This document shows positions 1-44,363 of a stretch of 44,363 nucleotides of DNA, piece after piece (the first letter of the stretch is position 1; every line of letters starts with the position of its first letter). This DNA is from a virus (lineage: Duplodnaviria; Heunggongvirae; Uroviricota; Caudoviricetes): positions 1-44,363 of IMG/VR virus record IMGVR_UViG_2534681673_000008, one strand, 5' to 3'. The position numbers were made by a program, and so were the translations under genes. The notes under the pieces are model-generated. The model worked only from the letters and a program-made list of their open reading frames with translations, was not told where the DNA came from and did no database searches.

Positions 1-7
1 CATCCAA

Positions 8-40
8 CCGCAGCACGTTCTTGCTTAAGACGTGCTGCGG
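8..40 (-). terminator. Inverted repeat (10-bp stem CCGCAGCACG / CGTGCTGCGG) just downstream of tfa; possible terminator, T-tract cut off by window edge
   Basis: Perfect 10-bp inverted repeat at 8-17 and 31-40 seen in sequence; downstream context is outside the window. Confidence 0.3.
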
Positions 41-54
41 CATAATCCCAATGA

Positions 55-4101: not shown

Positions 4102-4701
4102 TCAGAACTTATAACCGACACCCACGATGAAACCGTCAGTGCGCCAGTCGCCACTGCCGGAGCCTTCATAAGCAATATCAATGGCCACGGATTCGGTCGG
4201 GTTAAACTGCACGCCAGCTCCCCACGCCAGAGACGTGTTGCTGTGGCGACCGTCATCACTTCCGGTCAGTACATCGTGCGTTTTCCCCTTGTTGTCAGTT
4301 ACGCGAAGATAATCCCCGGAGAAAGTCGACACACGGCTGTAAGCCACACCCGCCATCGCATACGCGCTGAACCATTCATTCACGCGCACAGACGGCCCCG
4401 CCATCACGCTGAACCAGCGGTTACGCACGGAATCTTCATGCCAGCGGGTATCGCTGTAATGGGTCAGCTGGCGATTCTTGTCTCCTGCATAGCTGAATGA
4501 CGTCACCATCCCCAGTGTGTCCGTAAACTCATAACGGTATTTCACGTTAATCCCGTTCAGATCATCGCTGCCGGGAACGTTCGTCGAGGCATGAAGATAC
4601 CCCGCGCTCAGCGTGGACTGATGTTCAGACGCCCATGCAGGCGCACCGGATACGGCCAGACAAATGGCTGCGGACAAAATGGCGGCATAAAGTTTACGCA
4701 T
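4102..4701 (-). CDS. lom: Outer membrane protein Lom (Ail/Lom family beta-barrel, 199 aa)
   Basis: Signal peptide MRKLYAAILSAAICLAVSGAPAWA and terminal aromatic residue; position between J and stf as in lambda. Confidence 0.9.
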   Translation of the reverse strand: MRKLYAAILSAAICLAVSGAPAWASEHQSTLSAGYLHASTNVPGSDDLNGINVKYRYEFTDTLGMVTSFSYAGDKNRQLTHYSDTRWHEDSVRNRWFSVMAGPSVRVNEWFSAYAMAGVAYSRVSTFSGDYLRVTDNKGKTHDVLTGSDDGRHSNTSLAWGAGVQFNPTESVAIDIAYEGSGSGDWRTDGFIVGVGYKF

Positions 4702-23433: not shown

Positions 23434-23795
23434 ACATCCCGGTTTCTTCCACCATCGCACCGGAAAAGCGACTATGAGGGTAACCCTGCGTCTGTCAGCA
23501 CAGTAAAACCCGGTGTGCATCGTTTTTGATTATTCCCGCACACTCACGCAGAAGGAATTCCCCGTCGGGCTACGGTCATGGTTAATGCGGGAATACGGCG
23601 ACGATACAGCGCAGCTAAAAGGGTAATAGACGGATAGACCGGTTTATTTCATTCCACAGGATTCTGAGTGTCCCCAACTTCCTCCAATAGTCTGAGCGTA
23701 CACCTATATAGTTTTAATTTTCATCAATCCATTTAACTATCGTTTAATTGTTGTCACATAGGATTCTGCCGTTTTTAACAATGCAGGATAATAAG

Positions 23796-24089
23796 ATGAA
23801 AAAAATGTTGTTTTCTGCCGCTCTGGCAATGCTTATTACAGGATGTGCTCAACAGACGTTTACTGTTGGAAACAAACCGACAGCAGTAACACCAAAGGAA
23901 ACCATCACCCATCACTTCTTCGTTTCGGGAATTGGACAGGAGAAAACTGTTGATGCAGCCAAAATTTGTGGCGGCGCAGAAAATGTTGTTAAAACAGAAA
24001 CCCAGCAAACATTCGTAAATGGATTTCTCGGTTTTATTACTTTAGGCATTTATACTCCGCTGGAAGCGCGTGTGTATTGCTCACAATAA
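23796..24089 (+). CDS. bor: Bor lipoprotein (serum-resistance moron, 97 aa)
   Basis: MKKMLFSAALAMLITGC lipobox and close match to lambda Bor; ATG at 23796. Confidence 0.9.
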   Translation: MKKMLFSAALAMLITGCAQQTFTVGNKPTAVTPKETITHHFFVSGIGQEKTVDAAKICGGAENVVKTETQQTFVNGFLGFITLGIYTPLEARVYCSQ

Positions 24090-25879: not shown

Positions 25880-26977
25880 ATGAAAAAATTAACAGTGGCA
25901 ATTTCTGCTGTAGCTGCATCAGTACTGATGGCGATGTCTGCTCAGGCAGCTGAAATTTATAATAAAGACAGTAACAAGCTGGATCTGTACGGGAAAGTTA
26001 ATGCCAAGCACTACTTCTCCTCTAATGATGCAGATGATGGTGATACTACTTATGCCCGTCTTGGCTTCAAAGGTGAAACCCAAATCAACGATCAACTGAC
26101 TGGTTTCGGTCAGTGGGAATATGAATTCAAAGGCAACCGCGCTGAATCTCAAGGTTCCTCCAAAGACAAAACCCGTCTTGCATTTGCAGGCCTGAAATTC
26201 GGTGACTACGGCTCAATCGATTACGGCCGTAACTACGGTGTAGCATACGACATCGGTGCGTGGACTGACGTTCTGCCAGAATTCGGTGGCGATACCTGGA
26301 CCCAAACAGATGTGTTCATGACTGGTCGCACCACTGGTGTTGCAACCTATCGTAACAACGACTTCTTTGGTCTGGTTGATGGTCTGAACTTTGCTGCTCA
26401 GTACCAAGGCAAAAACGATCGTAGCGATTTCGATAACTACACTGAAGGTAACGGTGATGGCTTCGGTTTCTCTGCTACCTATGAATACGAAGGATTCGGT
26501 ATCGGTGCAACTTATGCGAAATCTGATCGTACCGACACTCAAGTTAATGCAGGGAAAGTTCTTCCTGAAGTATTTGCTTCCGGTAAAAATGCAGAAGTTT
26601 GGGCCGCAGGTCTGAAATATGACGCTAACAACATTTACCTGGCCACTACCTATTCTGAAACCCAGAATATGACTGTATTTGCTGATCACTTCGTTGCTAA
26701 TAAAGCCCAAAACTTCGAAGCTGTTGCACAATATCAGTTCGATTTCGGTCTGCGTCCGTCCGTTGCTTACCTGCAATCTAAAGGTAAAGATCTTGGAGTA
26801 TGGGGCGATCAGGACTTAGTCAAATATGTTGATGTAGGTGCAACCTATTACTTCAACAAAAATATGTCTACTTTCGTTGATTACAAAATCAACCTGCTTG
26901 ACAAAAATGACTTCACTAAAGCACTCGGTGTAAGCACTGATGACATCGTTGCTGTAGGTCTGGTTTACCAGTTCTAA
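25880..26977 (+). CDS. nmpC: Outer membrane porin, OmpC/NmpC/Lc family (365 aa), prophage moron between Q and S
   Basis: Signal peptide, porin beta-barrel composition and C-terminal F; AT-rich upstream region with OmpR-box-like sequence. Confidence 0.9.
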
Positions 26978-30799: not shown

Positions 30800-32326
30800 T
30801 CAAAAATAAACCTCACCATCAACCATATATTTGAGAGTACTTATCGCCTGCTGGGCGGATATTGTTTTCATTAAAGGATAGTGTTTAAAAACAATGCCAT
30901 TCATAAAATAGATATCACAGGTTTTATTATCTGTATTGATTATGATTTTTTCGAATGTTTTATAGGCAAGTGTACGACATAGCTCTCGCCCATTTTTACT
31001 GGTTAAGTCAATAGCATGAAAATCACCAAGTGAGCTCACCGCTTTACTCTTCAAAGTTTTTAATGATACAGAAGCCCTTCGTAATTCCTTATCTAATACT
31101 CTGATTTTTTCTGCTATAGCGGTAACTTCAGGCGCAACAGATAATGCAGCAATTAAATTATTAATTTTCATCTGGAGCTCAATAATTTTCAACTCTAAAG
31201 TTTCATTAGCATCTTTCTTGTTTTCAACTGGTTGGATTTTACTACAATTAAAAAGCAACTCATTAATGATATTATAATCAACCAAATCTCTCTTTATTGA
31301 TGGCCTGTCACATCGATGCAGTCTTCTCATCGGACAAACATAATAGCCATGCAAACTTCCAGATACCGCATGAACAATCATGGTATTACCACAAGCCTCG
31401 CACTTCATAACTGTTCGAAGTAGATTTATCAACATAGGGTTTTTGCTACTATTGCTAATACCAAAAGGTGCCAACCGAATTTCCTGCACAGCGTAAAACA
31501 AATCATCTGATATGACTCTGGGATAATAGCCAGCGATTTCACTTATTCCTTTACCTCTTGCACGATATGAAGGTACGCATATACCTATCAGAGCTTTATT
31601 CGCTAATAATTTTTCAATTACAGAAGGTCCCCATGCACTTTCTTTTCCTGAGAAATTCTTTACAGCATGATCATTTAAATACTTGGCTATTGCATTCAAT
31701 GAGCGCCTTTCCATCCTGAGTTTAAAAATTAGCTCAATAGTTTTCACCCTGTCGGGGTCTGGAACAAAAGCCGTTCTTTTGTCATCTAAGGAGAGCCATC
31801 TCGGACAAGACGCCGTCATAATCGTGCCTGACTCCAGTGCATCCTGCCGTTTTTTCTTCCATGATAATTTAACCCGACTTGACTTTATCTCGCTTTCTTC
31901 ATTTGCCCTTTGTGCTATAAGTATGGCTTTTATTAATGAATATGGATCATTCAAAGAGTCAATATTATAGACTGTATTATCGCAAAGAGTTATAACATCA
32001 ATACCGTGATTCAAAATCAATTTCAGACGCTCAATCGCTTCACCGACTTTTTCTCTTGAAAGTCTGTCCAGACTTTCAACTAACAATGTAGTTCCTGGCA
32101 ATATATAACCATGCTCTATAGCATCTAAAAATTCCGAAAAAGCTCCTGATTGTGCATGCTTTCCTTTGAATGCACTTAATCCTAAATCTTCATATGTTAT
32201 GGTATCAAGATAATAATCACTATTTACCTTTAACCATTCAGCAATAAGTCTTCTCTGTCGGTTTAATGAGTCGCCAGACATCTGACCTGGTGATGAAAAT
32301 CGCATATATGCTATGGCTTTTTTCAT
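30800..32326 (-). CDS. ybcK: Large serine recombinase (YbcK-like, 508 aa)
   Basis: N-terminal resolvase catalytic motif AIAYMRFSSPGQ, recombinase domain and Cys-rich zinc-ribbon region. Confidence 0.85.
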   Translation of the reverse strand: MKKAIAYMRFSSPGQMSGDSLNRQRRLIAEWLKVNSDYYLDTITYEDLGLSAFKGKHAQSGAFSEFLDAIEHGYILPGTTLLVESLDRLSREKVGEAIERLKLILNHGIDVITLCDNTVYNIDSLNDPYSLIKAILIAQRANEESEIKSSRVKLSWKKKRQDALESGTIMTASCPRWLSLDDKRTAFVPDPDRVKTIELIFKLRMERRSLNAIAKYLNDHAVKNFSGKESAWGPSVIEKLLANKALIGICVPSYRARGKGISEIAGYYPRVISDDLFYAVQEIRLAPFGISNSSKNPMLINLLRTVMKCEACGNTMIVHAVSGSLHGYYVCPMRRLHRCDRPSIKRDLVDYNIINELLFNCSKIQPVENKKDANETLELKIIELQMKINNLIAALSVAPEVTAIAEKIRVLDKELRRASVSLKTLKSKAVSSLGDFHAIDLTSKNGRELCRTLAYKTFEKIIINTDNKTCDIYFMNGIVFKHYPLMKTISAQQAISTLKYMVDGEVYF

Positions 32327-32583
32327 GGTGACACCTGCTAACGTATGCTTTTATAAACCTTAGTGGTGAGATATAATTTTTGTTTAATTTTTATTTAAAA
32401 AGACAATTAAGGTCACATTATCTTGAATATACAACAATAATCGTATTGCAATTTTCTTACGCCATAATCTTGAAAGCACAAAAGAATACATAAAAAAAAT
32501 AAAGACATTAACAAAAAGCATAAAACGAGGCTCATATAAATATAAGAGCCTCCATATTTTAGTCGTTTAGAAACAAATTATTT

Positions 32584-32916
32584 TTAATGTGGTGTGCTTC
32601 GTGACAATAAATTAATAACCAACACACCGGCACAAATCAACATCATGCCTATAATGGCTGGCAGGTCCAGCCGTTGGCCGAAAAATCCCCATGACAGTAA
32701 GCTAATCAGGACAATACCGACTCCTGACCAGATAGCATAAGCAATCCCTGTAGGAATATAAGCCAGCGTCTGAGCTAATAACCAGAATGATGCACAATAA
32801 CAAATAATTGTACCAACAGATGGCCATAACCGTGTAAAACCTTCTGAAAACTTCATTAAGGTTGTACCAATGACCTCTGCAAGTATTGCACCACCAAGAT
32901 AAATATAAGGGTTCAT
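32584..32916 (-). CDS. emrE: SMR-family multidrug efflux protein EmrE (110 aa)
   Basis: Translation from MNPYIYLGGAILAEVIGTTLMKFSEGF matches EmrE; four TM helices. Confidence 0.9.
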   Translation of the reverse strand: MNPYIYLGGAILAEVIGTTLMKFSEGFTRLWPSVGTIICYCASFWLLAQTLAYIPTGIAYAIWSGVGIVLISLLSWGFFGQRLDLPAIIGMMLICAGVLVINLLSRSTPH

Positions 32917-39271: not shown

Positions 39272-39426
39272 AGCATCCTCACGATAATATCCGGGTAGGC
39301 GCGATCACTTTCATCTACTCCATTACAAAGCGAGGCTGGGTATTTCCCGGCCTTTCTGTTATCAGAAATCCACTGAAAGCACAGCGGCTGGCTGAGAAGA
39401 TAAATAATAAACAGGAGGATATATGA
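39268..39426 (+). CDS. Orf60a-like small protein (52 aa); start overlaps exo stop and stop overlaps the next start
   Basis: Hand-translated [52 protein letters not shown] resembles lambda orf60a. Confidence 0.6.
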
Positions 39427-40487
39427 GTCAGGTTGGTAATCATTCATTCGAATTTCCGGCATCGCAAGGTGTACAGGGTGGTACTGTTACACTCTTCCTT
39501 ACCATACCAGGAAGATCGCTGGCTCGTTTCCTCGCTTCAGATAATTACGGCCATACACTGGCACGCTCTCAGCGAGAAATTAATCCAAATCGAGTACGAA
39601 AATTTTTAAATTATCTCACTAACGCAGACTCAAGAAATGAGCCTTTTATCATTCCCCCTCTCGTAGGTAACTGTGATTCGAATATAGAATTTGTACCGTT
39701 TGGCAACACAAATGTTGGTATAGCCAGAATTCCCCTCGACGCCGAAATAAAACTTTTTGATGGTCAACATCGTGCAGCTGGCATTGAGATATTTTGCCGA
39801 AGTTCCCCATCAACGCTCATGGTTCCCATGATGCTTACAATGAATCTGCCGCTAAAAACCCGGCAGCAGTTCTTTTCGGACATAAATAACAACGTTTCTA
39901 AGCCATCAGCGACCATCAATATGGCGTATAACGGCCGGGATGATATTGCTCAGGGAATGATATCCTTCCTGACCCAACATACTGTATTTGCCGATATAAC
40001 CGATTTTGAACACAACGTAGTGCCATTAAAAAGTAATATGTGGGTGAGTTTCAAGGCACTCACTGATGCAACGTCAAAGTTCGCCAGGAACGGCAATCAA
40101 CAACTTGAAATGGGATATATAGAATCTGTCTGGGAGGCATGGATTACACTAACTCAGATTGACTCAATCCGACATGGTGTACACCACGCTACGTACAAGC
40201 GCGATTATATTCAGTTCCATGGAGTAATGATTAACGCTTTCGGTTTTGCGGTTCAACAGATGATGGTTAATCATTCCATCGCAGAAATAACTTCTATGAT
40301 CGAAAAACTATGTGCAACTACCAGCTCTGCAGAAAGAGAGGATTTTTTTCTGATGGATAACTGGGCGGGGATCTGCACGAAAGCCAGCCAGGAAAAACTA
40401 TCTGTTATTGCCAATGTGGCAGCGCAGAAAGCAGCAGCAAACAGACTGATACAAGCTTTTACCAAAGGAAGTCTGGAATCAACTTAA
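39423..40487 (+). CDS. DGQHR-domain protein (DndB-like / ParB-Srx fold, 354 aa) in the accessory slot downstream of exo
   Basis: Hallmark motif FDGQHRAAGIE at about residue 104; size typical of DndB family; AGGAGG Shine-Dalgarno and ATGA overlap with orf60a. Confidence 0.7.
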   Translation: MSQVGNHSFEFPASQGVQGGTVTLFLTIPGRSLARFLASDNYGHTLARSQREINPNRVRKFLNYLTNADSRNEPFIIPPLVGNCDSNIEFVPFGNTNVGIARIPLDAEIKLFDGQHRAAGIEIFCRSSPSTLMVPMMLTMNLPLKTRQQFFSDINNNVSKPSATINMAYNGRDDIAQGMISFLTQHTVFADITDFEHNVVPLKSNMWVSFKALTDATSKFARNGNQQLEMGYIESVWEAWITLTQIDSIRHGVHHATYKRDYIQFHGVMINAFGFAVQQMMVNHSIAEITSMIEKLCATTSSAEREDFFLMDNWAGICTKASQEKLSVIANVAAQKAAANRLIQAFTKGSLEST

Positions 40488-41917: not shown

Positions 41918-42262
41918 ATGTCAGATTTGGCTATGAAGGTTTTGAAATGGCAATCAACTGGCGATGTCGGCATCAGTAGCGCAACTCTTGCCTCAATCGC
42001 ATGTGGCCTGAAAAAGAATATCTATGGTCATCACTTCGGCGCTCCCCATGACGCAGCAGACTTTCGGCGATGCGTTGCACTTGTTGAGCAGATTCCAGAA
42101 ATCAGAGATTCATTCGACAAGGTTGCAAAGCGCGTTCCGGCATTCAAAGGAATCCTCAACGAATGGGATTCACTCGTTGCTCTGTTGAAGTCTGAAATGA
42201 AGACGTACGGGAACAAAGCACCAGAGACTTACAGAAGAATCAGCGAGCTACGCAAGGACTAA
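41918..42262 (+). CDS. Hypothetical protein (114 aa)
   Basis: ORF followed directly by terminator hairpins; no recognisable motif. Confidence 0.5.
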   Translation: MSDLAMKVLKWQSTGDVGISSATLASIACGLKKNIYGHHFGAPHDAADFRRCVALVEQIPEIRDSFDKVAKRVPAFKGILNEWDSLVALLKSEMKTYGNKAPETYRRISELRKD

Positions 42263-42265
42263 CCC

Positions 42266-42294
42266 GCCTCACACTCGATGAGGCATTTTCATTT
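42266..42294 (+). terminator. Rho-independent terminator after the 114-aa ORF
   Basis: GCCTCA-CACTCGA-TGAGGC then ATTTTCATTT. Confidence 0.5.
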
Positions 42295-42319
42295 ATCAAG
42301 ATATCCAGACCTACCATCG

Positions 42320-42340
42320 CCGCATCAATGCGGTTTTTTT
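42320..42340 (+). terminator. Second terminator hairpin upstream of the excisionase gene
   Basis: CCGCA-TCAA-TGCGG followed by TTTTTTT. Confidence 0.5.
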
Positions 42341-42385
42341 ATTACCTGATTTGCAGGTTCGATTCCCTATTCGGAGATAGCACTC

Positions 42386-42586
42386 ATGCAACACGAACTA
42401 CAGCCTGATTCCCTGGTTGATTTGAAATTCATCATGGCTGATACTGGCTTTGGTAAAACCTTCATCTACGACCGGATTAAGTCCGGCGACCTGCCAAAAG
42501 CCAAAGTTATCCACGGGCGAGCAAGATGGTTATATCGTGACCATTGTGAATTCAAAAATAAGCTCTTAAGCCGCGCCAATGGGTAA
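42386..42586 (+). CDS. torI: Excisionase / recombination directionality factor, TorI(AlpA)-type (66 aa)
   Basis: Matches remembered KpLE1 TorI (MQHELQPDSLVDLKFIMADTGFGKTFIYDRI...); last prophage gene before the att core. Confidence 0.8.
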   Translation: MQHELQPDSLVDLKFIMADTGFGKTFIYDRIKSGDLPKAKVIHGRARWLYRDHCEFKNKLLSRANG

Positions 42587-42659
42587 AATAGCGGGTAAAA
42601 TATTTCTCACACCTAAAAAACACCATTCCAATCAATCCCCTGCCGCTTCAAGTAGATGT

Positions 42660-42674
42660 CTGCAGGGGACACCA
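42660..42674 (+). other. att core: 15-nt copy of the 3-prime end of tRNA-Arg (argW type), CTGCAGGGGACACCA; not a complete tRNA
   Basis: Matches remembered argW 3-prime end only; upstream sequence does not form the rest of a tRNA. Confidence 0.5.
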
Positions 42675-43115
42675 GATACCCTTCAAACGAAATCTACCTT
42701 CACCCCGTAAAAGATGGGTTTGGCAGCACACTTGCCTTATATCTACTCATTTTTACTGCAACAGGTTGAAATCTCAGCACTGTCAGAAAGCGCTGATGAC
42801 TAAACAGCCCTGGGCCGGGCGATGTAACCATCACACAGAATCCTGATAGCGAAATATGGCGTGACTCGATACTTCACTCCGCAATGCATTCCTTGATGAA
42901 TTCGCAGGACCGTGATACACGGGACAGGTCACTGAATGACGACAATGTCCTGGAAATCAGCGAACCGCGCATCTGAAGTACATTTGAGCGACTGTACCAG
43001 AACATGAATGAGGCGTTTGGATTAGGCGATTATTAGCAGGGCTAAGCATTTTACTATTATTATTTTCCGGTTGAGGGATATAGAGCTATCGACAACAACC
43101 GGAAAAAGTTTACGT

Positions 43116-44363
43116 CTATATTGCTGAAGGTACAGGCGTTTCCATAACTATTTGCTCGCGTTTTTTACTCAAGAAGAAAATGCCAAATAGCAACATCAGG
43201 CAGACAATACCCGAAATTGCGAAGAAAACTGTCTGGTAGCCTGCGTGGTCAAAGAGTATCCCAGTCGGCGTTGAAAGCAGCACAATCCCAAGCGAACTGG
43301 CAATTTGAAAACCAATCAGAAAGATCGTCGACGACAGGCGCTTATCAAAGTTTGCCACGCTGTATTTGAAGACGGATATGACACAAAGTGGAACCTCAAT
43401 GGCATGTAACAACTTCACTAATGAAATAATCCAGGGGTTAACGAACAGCGCGCAGGAAAGGATACGCAACGCCATAATCACAACTCCGATAAGTAATGCA
43501 TTTTTTGGCCCTACCCGATTCACAAAGAAAGGAATAATCGCCATGCACAGCGCTTCGAGTACCACCTGGAATGAGTTGAGATAACCATACAGGCGCGTTC
43601 CTACATCGTGTGATTCGAATAAACCTGCATAAAAGACAGGAAAAAGTTGTTGATCAAAAATGTTATAGAAAGACCACGTCCCCACAATAAATATGACGAA
43701 AACCCAGAAGTTTCGATCCTTGAAAACTGCGATAAAATCCTCTTTTTTTACCCCTCCCGCATCTGCCGCTACGCACTGGTGATCCTTATCTTTAAAACGC
43801 ATGTTGATCATCATAAATACAGCGCCAAATAGCGAGACCAACCAGAAGTTGATATGGGGACTGATACTAAAAAATATGCCGGCAAAGAACGCGCCAATAG
43901 CATAGCCAAAAGATCCCCAGGCGCGCGCTGTTCCATATTCGAAATGAAAATTTCGCGCCATTTTTTCGGTGAAGCTATCAAGCAAACCGCATCCCGCCAG
44001 ATACCCCAAGCCAAAAAATAGCGCCCCCAGAATTAGACCTACAGAAAAATTGCTTTGCAGTAACGGTTCATAAACGTAAATCATAAACGGTCCGGTCAAG
44101 ACCAGGATGAAACTCATACACCAGATGAGCGGTTTCTTCAGACCGAGTTTATCCTGAACGATGCCGTAGAACATCATAAATAGAATGCTGGTAAACTGGT
44201 TGACCGAATAAAGTGTACCTAATTCCGTCCCTGTCAACCCTAGATGTCCTTTCAGCCAAATAGCGTATAACGACCACCACAGCGACCAGGAAATAAAAAA
44301 GAGAAATGAGTAACTGGATGCAAAACGATAGTACGCATTTCTGAATGGAATATTCAGTGCCAT
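43116..44363 (-). CDS. cscB: Sucrose permease CscB (LacY-family oligosaccharide:H+ symporter, 415 aa); host gene flanking the prophage
   Basis: Matches remembered CscB (MALNIPFRNAYYRFASSYSFLFF...); 12-TM MFS protein; start codon is the last three bases of the window. Confidence 0.9.
   Translation of the reverse strand: MALNIPFRNAYYRFASSYSFLFFISWSLWWSLYAIWLKGHLGLTGTELGTLYSVNQFTSILFMMFYGIVQDKLGLKKPLIWCMSFILVLTGPFMIYVYEPLLQSNFSVGLILGALFFGLGYLAGCGLLDSFTEKMARNFHFEYGTARAWGSFGYAIGAFFAGIFFSISPHINFWLVSLFGAVFMMINMRFKDKDHQCVAADAGGVKKEDFIAVFKDRNFWVFVIFIVGTWSFYNIFDQQLFPVFYAGLFESHDVGTRLYGYLNSFQVVLEALCMAIIPFFVNRVGPKNALLIGVVIMALRILSCALFVNPWIISLVKLLHAIEVPLCVISVFKYSVANFDKRLSSTIFLIGFQIASSLGIVLLSTPTGILFDHAGYQTVFFAISGIVCLMLLFGIFFLSKKREQIVMETPVPSAI

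Follow-up and report, generated by a model that had tools for sequence, protein, structure and literature searches.

Like that of lambda, the recombination module of KplE1 and HK620 depends on IHF and combines a small winged-helix excisionase with a tyrosine integrase that has arm-type and core-type sites. The lambda int and xis genes are both found on the same side of attP, remain adjacent in the prophage, and are transcribed from pL, whereas in the KplE1/HK620 module the two genes are separated by attP. Panis and colleagues described this as an "unusual organisation of the recombination module", with intS as the first and torI as the last gene of the prophage (PMC2951348, PMC3509656). The position of attP between xis and int has been stated in print for Kapi1, Sf6, HK620, and KplE1 (PMC8787464). 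The module also differs from that of lambda in having TorI sites in the int-proximal arm and the intS promoter inside attL (PMC2951348). This promoter overlaps attL, and intS is autoregulated, being repressed by IntS and TorI; excision in vitro requires IntS, IHF, and TorI, and TorI- and IntS-dependent excision has been shown experimentally for the identical module of K-12 and HK620 (PMC2951348, PMC3509656).

The DNA analyzed here is one stretch of 44,363 nucleotides, referred to below as the window. A first-pass annotation, made from the letters of the window, had pointed out that the excisionase gene at the right end of the prophage has no integrase gene next to it, and had offered two explanations: either attP lies between int and xis, which would place int at the far end of the prophage beyond position 1, or int has been lost. 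Our results make it highly probable that a lambda-like prophage was inserted in E. coli argW by the IntS/TorI (KplE1/HK620) module, with attP between xis and int, and that the window contains its right-hand junction. How the genes are split, how they are regulated, and how widely the arrangement occurs have all been published before, and the locus is a textbook copy of a well-characterized module. The features on which the analysis was based are listed in Table 1.

Table 1. Positions of features of the prophage, its right-hand junction, and the adjoining host DNA in the window
Feature	Position	Strand	Remarks
Lambdoid DLP12-like prophage body	1–42659		ORF list and annotation of the 99.6–99.9% identical P393-F10 region
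ybcK homologue, 508-aa large serine recombinase (Resolvase, Recombinase, and Zn_ribbon_recom domains)	30800–32326	−	Pfam, annotation
emrE, multidrug efflux gene	32583–32915	−	With ybcK between the replication and nin regions
Two intrinsic-terminator-like hairpins, each followed by a T run	42266–42284 and 42319–42334 (within 42266–42345)	+	Terminator scan; mark the end of the early-left gene before them; the recombination module follows
16-mer TTGCAGGTTCGATTCC	42351–42366	+	Identical to argW nt 46–61 (T-arm); 19 nt separate its end from the torI ATG
torI, recombination directionality factor (excisionase) of the KplE1/HK620 module	42386–42586	+	66 aa; last real prophage gene
Two direct copies of GGGTAAAATA	42581–42590 and 42593–42602	+	Direct repeat family D3; overlap the torI stop codon
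P arm of attR, phage DNA from the torI stop to the core	42587–42659	+	73 nt; nearly identical to K-12 CPS-53 attR
att core (crossover region) CTGCAGGGGACACCA	42660–42674	+	Displaced argW 3' end; equivalent to K-12 pseudogene pawZ; right prophage boundary
Host spacer between argW and cscB	42675–43115		Unchanged in prophage-free strains; empty-site matches at 100%
cscB terminator hairpin	43063–43106		In the host spacer; inverted repeat I6
cscB, sucrose permease, first gene of the csc sucrose island	43116–44363	−	415-aa ORF running to the window end; RefSeq annotation

The right prophage junction in argW

The 15-mer CTGCAGGGGACACCA occurred once in the window. It is identical to nucleotides 61–75 of argW, the 75-nt argW sequence having been taken from near-identical genomes, and 73 nt separate it from the torI stop codon. 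The first-pass annotation had described a 15-nt copy of the 3' end of tRNA-Arg within about 75 bp of the excisionase gene; both the identity and the distance were borne out. In K-12 the spacing between torI and pawZ, the 15-nt "pseudo-argW" annotated in that strain, is identical.

For KplE1, the core has been published as the 16-mer CTGCAGGGGACACCAT (PMC2951348). Fifteen of its 16 bases were present in the window, and base 16 was G because the host base following argW in csc-type strains is G. At this 16th position, the outermost of the core as published, attL has T and attR has G. The repeat is 15 nt here, not 16 nt as in K-12, because the host side is the csc island and not dsdC.

A 15-nt match is short, and it could be a chance likeness to the tRNA 3' end with the true prophage end lying elsewhere. 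We find this scarcely credible. The 15-mer had no match in 100 shuffles, even when one mismatch was allowed. In addition, the window and the K-12 CPS-53 attR were nearly identical base for base over a stretch that starts some 80 nt upstream of torI and stops directly after the CACCA that ends the core; beyond it they were unrelated, so that the homology stops exactly where the core does. The explanation was refuted by an empty-site test, in which the last 300 nt ending with argW were joined to window positions 42675–42974, and the synthetic junction was searched against 5426 complete E. coli genomes. The junction was contiguous in 1415 of them, many at 100% identity. In the prophage-free genomes the order was argW, the same 441-nt spacer, and then cscB. 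Because the argW-42675 junction is contiguous in empty-site genomes, positions 42675–43115 are host DNA and the prophage ends at 42674/42675. Thus the empty site in other strains showed that the insertion is precise at the argW 3' end, and the right prophage boundary is fixed to the base. The earlier reading of the DNA from att to cscB as non-phage was correct.

The reading frame assigned to cscB was labelled "oligosaccharide MFS transporter" or cscB in RefSeq genomes. Beyond it, the matching genomes contain the csc kinase gene, cscA, a gene for a LacI-type regulator, and then a truncated dsdX. The csc genes replace dsdCX at the argW recombination hotspot (PMC4366372); the host side is the csc sucrose island here, versus dsdC in K-12. 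Within the host spacer there was also a 30-codon remnant of a DUF4942 gene (42884–42973, + strand), annotated as a pseudogene in strain ECO3183, which was probably left behind by an older island at this hotspot.

TorI and the P arm of attR

The protein encoded by the last prophage gene was identical at 66 of 66 residues to the "Tor inhibition protein" of PDB 1Z4H, which is the solved K-12 TorI excisionase, and was also identical to HkaC of HK620 and gp18 of Sf6. It gave a weak HTH_17 Pfam match, and the same CDS is called torI in the RefSeq annotation of matching genomes. The identification of this gene as a TorI-type excisionase in the first-pass annotation was therefore well founded. A second reading frame, the hkaB-like ORF annotated in HK620 (window 42579–42710), spans the core and has its C-terminus altered by integration; it is probably not a gene.

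HK620 and Sf6 DNA was 97–98% identical to the window from 42330 to the core, with the homology starting at about 42330 (query position 71 of the phage matches). The homologous stretch of HK97 carries the annotation "terminator".

The functional 135-bp attR substrate of Panis and colleagues starts with primer CTCTTAAGCCGCGCCAATGG (PMC2951348, PMC3509656), and this primer matched window positions 42563–42582. The motif GGGTAAAA had seven occurrences in the window versus 1.3 expected, and was also found in both orientations in the attL arm beside intS. Because a TAAA motif has been published in all IntS arm-type P' sites (PMC2951348), we read the two direct copies of GGGTAAAATA as putative IntS arm-type sites of the attR P arm.

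Location of the integrase gene

Searches were made for an integrase or a tRNA gene. ARAGORN found no tRNA in the whole 44-kb window, and there was no Rfam match at E ≤ 1 in positions 42200–43200. Seven small ORFs between torI and cscB (42579–43049) had no Pfam match, and when IntS was compared with the window by tblastn, no hit was better than E = 1.3. No tyrosine integrase is annotated in the near-identical P393-F10 region; the sole recombinase there is the serine recombinase ybcK. These results upheld the earlier statement that no integrase lies between xis and att, and neither a complete tRNA nor an integrase, either of which the first-pass annotation had named as evidence against its reading, was detected in 42587–43115. 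A 13-nt match to argW nucleotides 8–20 (23727–23739, − strand) was dropped as being at about the chance level, 0.08 matches being expected by our own estimate.

By megablast, some genomes were 100% identical to the window in parts, but no genome in the collection was so over its whole length, the best (P393-F10 and STEC719) being 99.6–99.9% identical; the left end of the prophage was therefore inferred from relatives. Four genomes were examined (P393-F10, STEC719, 2014C-3307, and ZYS9073), in which the junction was 100% identical and the rest of the window 98.3–99.9% identical. In all four, the opposite end of the prophage contained intS (385 aa) and, 161 nt away, an intact argW, and the order at the left end was the tail-fibre assembly gene, methyltransferase, tail-fibre remnant, alpha/beta hydrolase, ompT, intS, the 161 nt, argW, and yfdC. 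Window position 1 corresponds to P393-F10 position 2,694,002, with intS at 2,688,633–2,689,790 and argW at 2,688,397–2,688,471; thus, in the near-identical genomes, intS and argW lie about 4.2–5.6 kb to the left of position 1. The IntS protein contains Arm-DNA-bind_3, Phage_int_M, and Phage_integrase domains; its identity is 98.7% with K-12 IntS and 97.9% with HK620 Int. The attL sequences of P393-F10 and STEC719 differ from that of K-12 at three positions only, and all five published TorI sites (GTTCG, GTCCG, GTTCG, GTTCG, and GATCG, in two blocks) are present in the P393-F10 attL.

By proxy of these four genomes, intS in the source genome should likewise adjoin an intact argW, at an attL that contains PintS as well as the five TorI sites. 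The prophage's left end, with its cargo genes, intS, attL, and argW, would then lie beyond position 1, the window stopping about 5.5 kb short of attL, and the prophage is predicted to be bounded on the left by intS and argW. The first-pass annotation had proposed that the DNA upstream of position 1 be inspected for a tyrosine integrase, a complete argW, and the duplicated core. All were found in the four near-identical genomes; for the source genome the same left end is inferred from them.

Loss of the integrase, the second of the two explanations offered earlier, would have stranded the prophage, the excisionase being an orphan and the att site a scar. It would account for there being no tyrosine integrase in the 44-kb window, and the window stops before the left end, but a full-length intS with all three domains is present beside argW in each of the four near-identical genomes. 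Moreover, because int is normally at the far end in this module, the absence of int next to torI is expected and is no sign of loss. We consider integrase loss very unlikely.

Since the prophage encodes a large serine recombinase, the ybcK homologue with its three recombinase-type domains (Table 1), we also weighed integration through this protein, with the argW-like 15-mer being incidental. However, the boundary lies exactly at the KplE1 core and is accompanied by KplE1-type P-arm repeats and TorI; ybcK is located in the middle of the genome beside emrE, far from either junction; and, judging from the empty site, the prophage was inserted precisely at the 3' end of argW. The chance that ybcK mediated the integration is therefore exceedingly small.

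The first explanation, with attP between int and xis and int at the far end, was supported by the position of intS beside argW in all four relatives, by the order of genes in free phages, and by the literature cited above. In the free phage records of HK620 and Sf6, hkaC or gene 18 (the torI equivalents), the attP core 73 nt further on, and int 160 nt beyond the core are all on one strand. The order xis, core, int was also found in the Erwinia phages Midgardsormr38 and vB_EhrS_49, the Klebsiella phage RCIP0114, and the Salmonella phage Emek, whose recombination modules are 72–81% identical in DNA sequence.

Insertion by the IntS/TorI module would proceed as follows. The circular phage would carry, on one strand, torI, the P arm, the 15–16-nt core, the P' arm, and intS. 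IntS, a P4-like tyrosine integrase, would recombine the core of the phage with the last 15 nt of argW, which are identical to it. At attL, directly beside intS, an intact argW would be regenerated by the phage copy of the core, and the displaced host copy would remain at attR, 73 nt after torI. Because attP lies between xis and int, integration would put the two genes at opposite ends of the prophage, about 49 kb apart, which explains the absence of an integrase beside the excisionase. Excision is predicted to produce the joints ...GATGTCTGCAGGGGACACCATTTATCAG... for attP and ...ATTCCTGCAGGGGACACCAGATACCC... for attB. Judging from the module as described in print, this copy of the prophage is expected to be excision-competent. 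Since excision needs TorI, and intS is expressed from its own autoregulated promoter in attL, torI expression would be the excision switch; the prediction is that torI expression alone should trigger excision.

The first-pass annotation had also contrasted this locus with lambda, where int and xis are adjacent. The contrast holds for the prophage: there is no tyrosine integrase in the window, and int is at the opposite end in the relatives. It does not hold for the phage form, in which the two genes are neighbours about 250 bp apart across attP.

The closest described relative at this site is K-12 CPS-53/KplE1, arranged as argW-intS ... torI-pawZ, which has the same argW 3'-end site, an identical TorI, and the same 73-nt spacing, and whose attL and intS are nearly identical to those of the near-identical genomes. 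CPS-53/KplE1 is a 10.2-kb remnant without lysis or repressor genes, whereas here the module flanks a lambdoid genome of full length (about 49 kb) that includes cI/cro as well as replication, lysis, head, and tail genes. HK620, Sf6, and Kapi1 have the same module on a different backbone, being short-tailed P22-like phages, whereas this prophage is of the long-tailed lambda/DLP12-like kind. The combination of the KplE1/HK620 module with a full-length DLP12-like backbone beside the csc island is a further module exchange at the argW hotspot; beyond correct annotation it has little significance.

The argW-like block upstream of torI, and the prophage body

The 16-mer TTGCAGGTTCGATTCC upstream of torI (Table 1) had a single match in the window and none in shuffles. 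In tRNA numbering it abuts the core (nucleotides 46–61 and 61–75, respectively), so that torI is flanked on its two sides by segments of the argW 3' half that adjoin each other in the tRNA. Our first reading was that the block is a relic of a longer tRNA identity block. The 75-nt argW was searched against the phage collection for an attP with uninterrupted argW 46–75, and the matches were mostly prophage records with the host tRNA and unrelated phage tRNA genes. The arrangement GTTCGATTCCC..CGGAGATA..ATG was invariant in HK620, Erwinia phage Midgardsormr38, and Salmonella phage Emek, in which the surrounding DNA is only about 72–76% identical; given this invariant core, the block may not be a relic. 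In Midgardsormr38, CAGGTTCGATTCCC occurs twice in tandem.

The 16-mer contains GTTCG, which is the TorI-site motif (PMC2951348). The torI promoter has been called uncharacterised (PMC2951348), and a cII-activated promoter predicted by the depositors of HK620 overlaps the position of the block. A role as operator or promoter is plausible because the GTTCGATTCCC core is invariant in diverged modules, GTTCG is present, and the predicted promoter overlaps. We therefore tentatively put the block forward as a candidate functional element, for example a TorI operator or a PtorI control site, that shares GTTCG with the argW T-arm in attL and attB, although we hold this to be a possibility and not the probable case. 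If true, the element would add a missing control point to the excision switch of a widespread module. A second GTTCG, in torI codons 3–5 (42394–42398, − strand), was dropped because it is not conserved in the Erwinia phage.

Other phages also use this tRNA gene. For Stx2a-converting phages at argW (LC6454xx records), the annotated duplications cover 63–69 nt of argW, and therefore a second, different type of integrase uses argW with a much longer identity block.

On the basis of P393-F10, the gene order of the prophage body from left to right is tail fibre, tail, head, terminase, lysis, Q antiterminator, nin region, and the ybcK/emrE insert, followed by replication, cI/cro-type regulators, gam/bet/exo (red/gam), a few early-left genes, and torI. 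The placement of ybcK next to emrE is the same as in the defective prophage DLP12 of K-12. In P393-F10, the cargo between the tail-fibre genes and intS, to the left of position 1 and in window positions 1–54, comprises ompT, an alpha/beta hydrolase gene, a SAM methyltransferase gene, and a tail-fibre-assembly remnant. Because this ompT-hydrolase-methyltransferase cargo mirrors the ompT-side end of K-12 DLP12, it suggests a DLP12-like phage carrying a different integration module.

The prophage body also contains outer-membrane and serum-resistance morons, namely genes for an nmpC-like porin (25880–26977, + strand), iss/bor (23796–24089, + strand), and an Ail/Lom family protein (4102–4701, − strand). 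A gene for a 354-aa DGQHR domain protein, DndB/DpdB-like by family name, was found in the early-left region beside exo (39423–40487, + strand), where phages typically carry defence or anti-defence genes.
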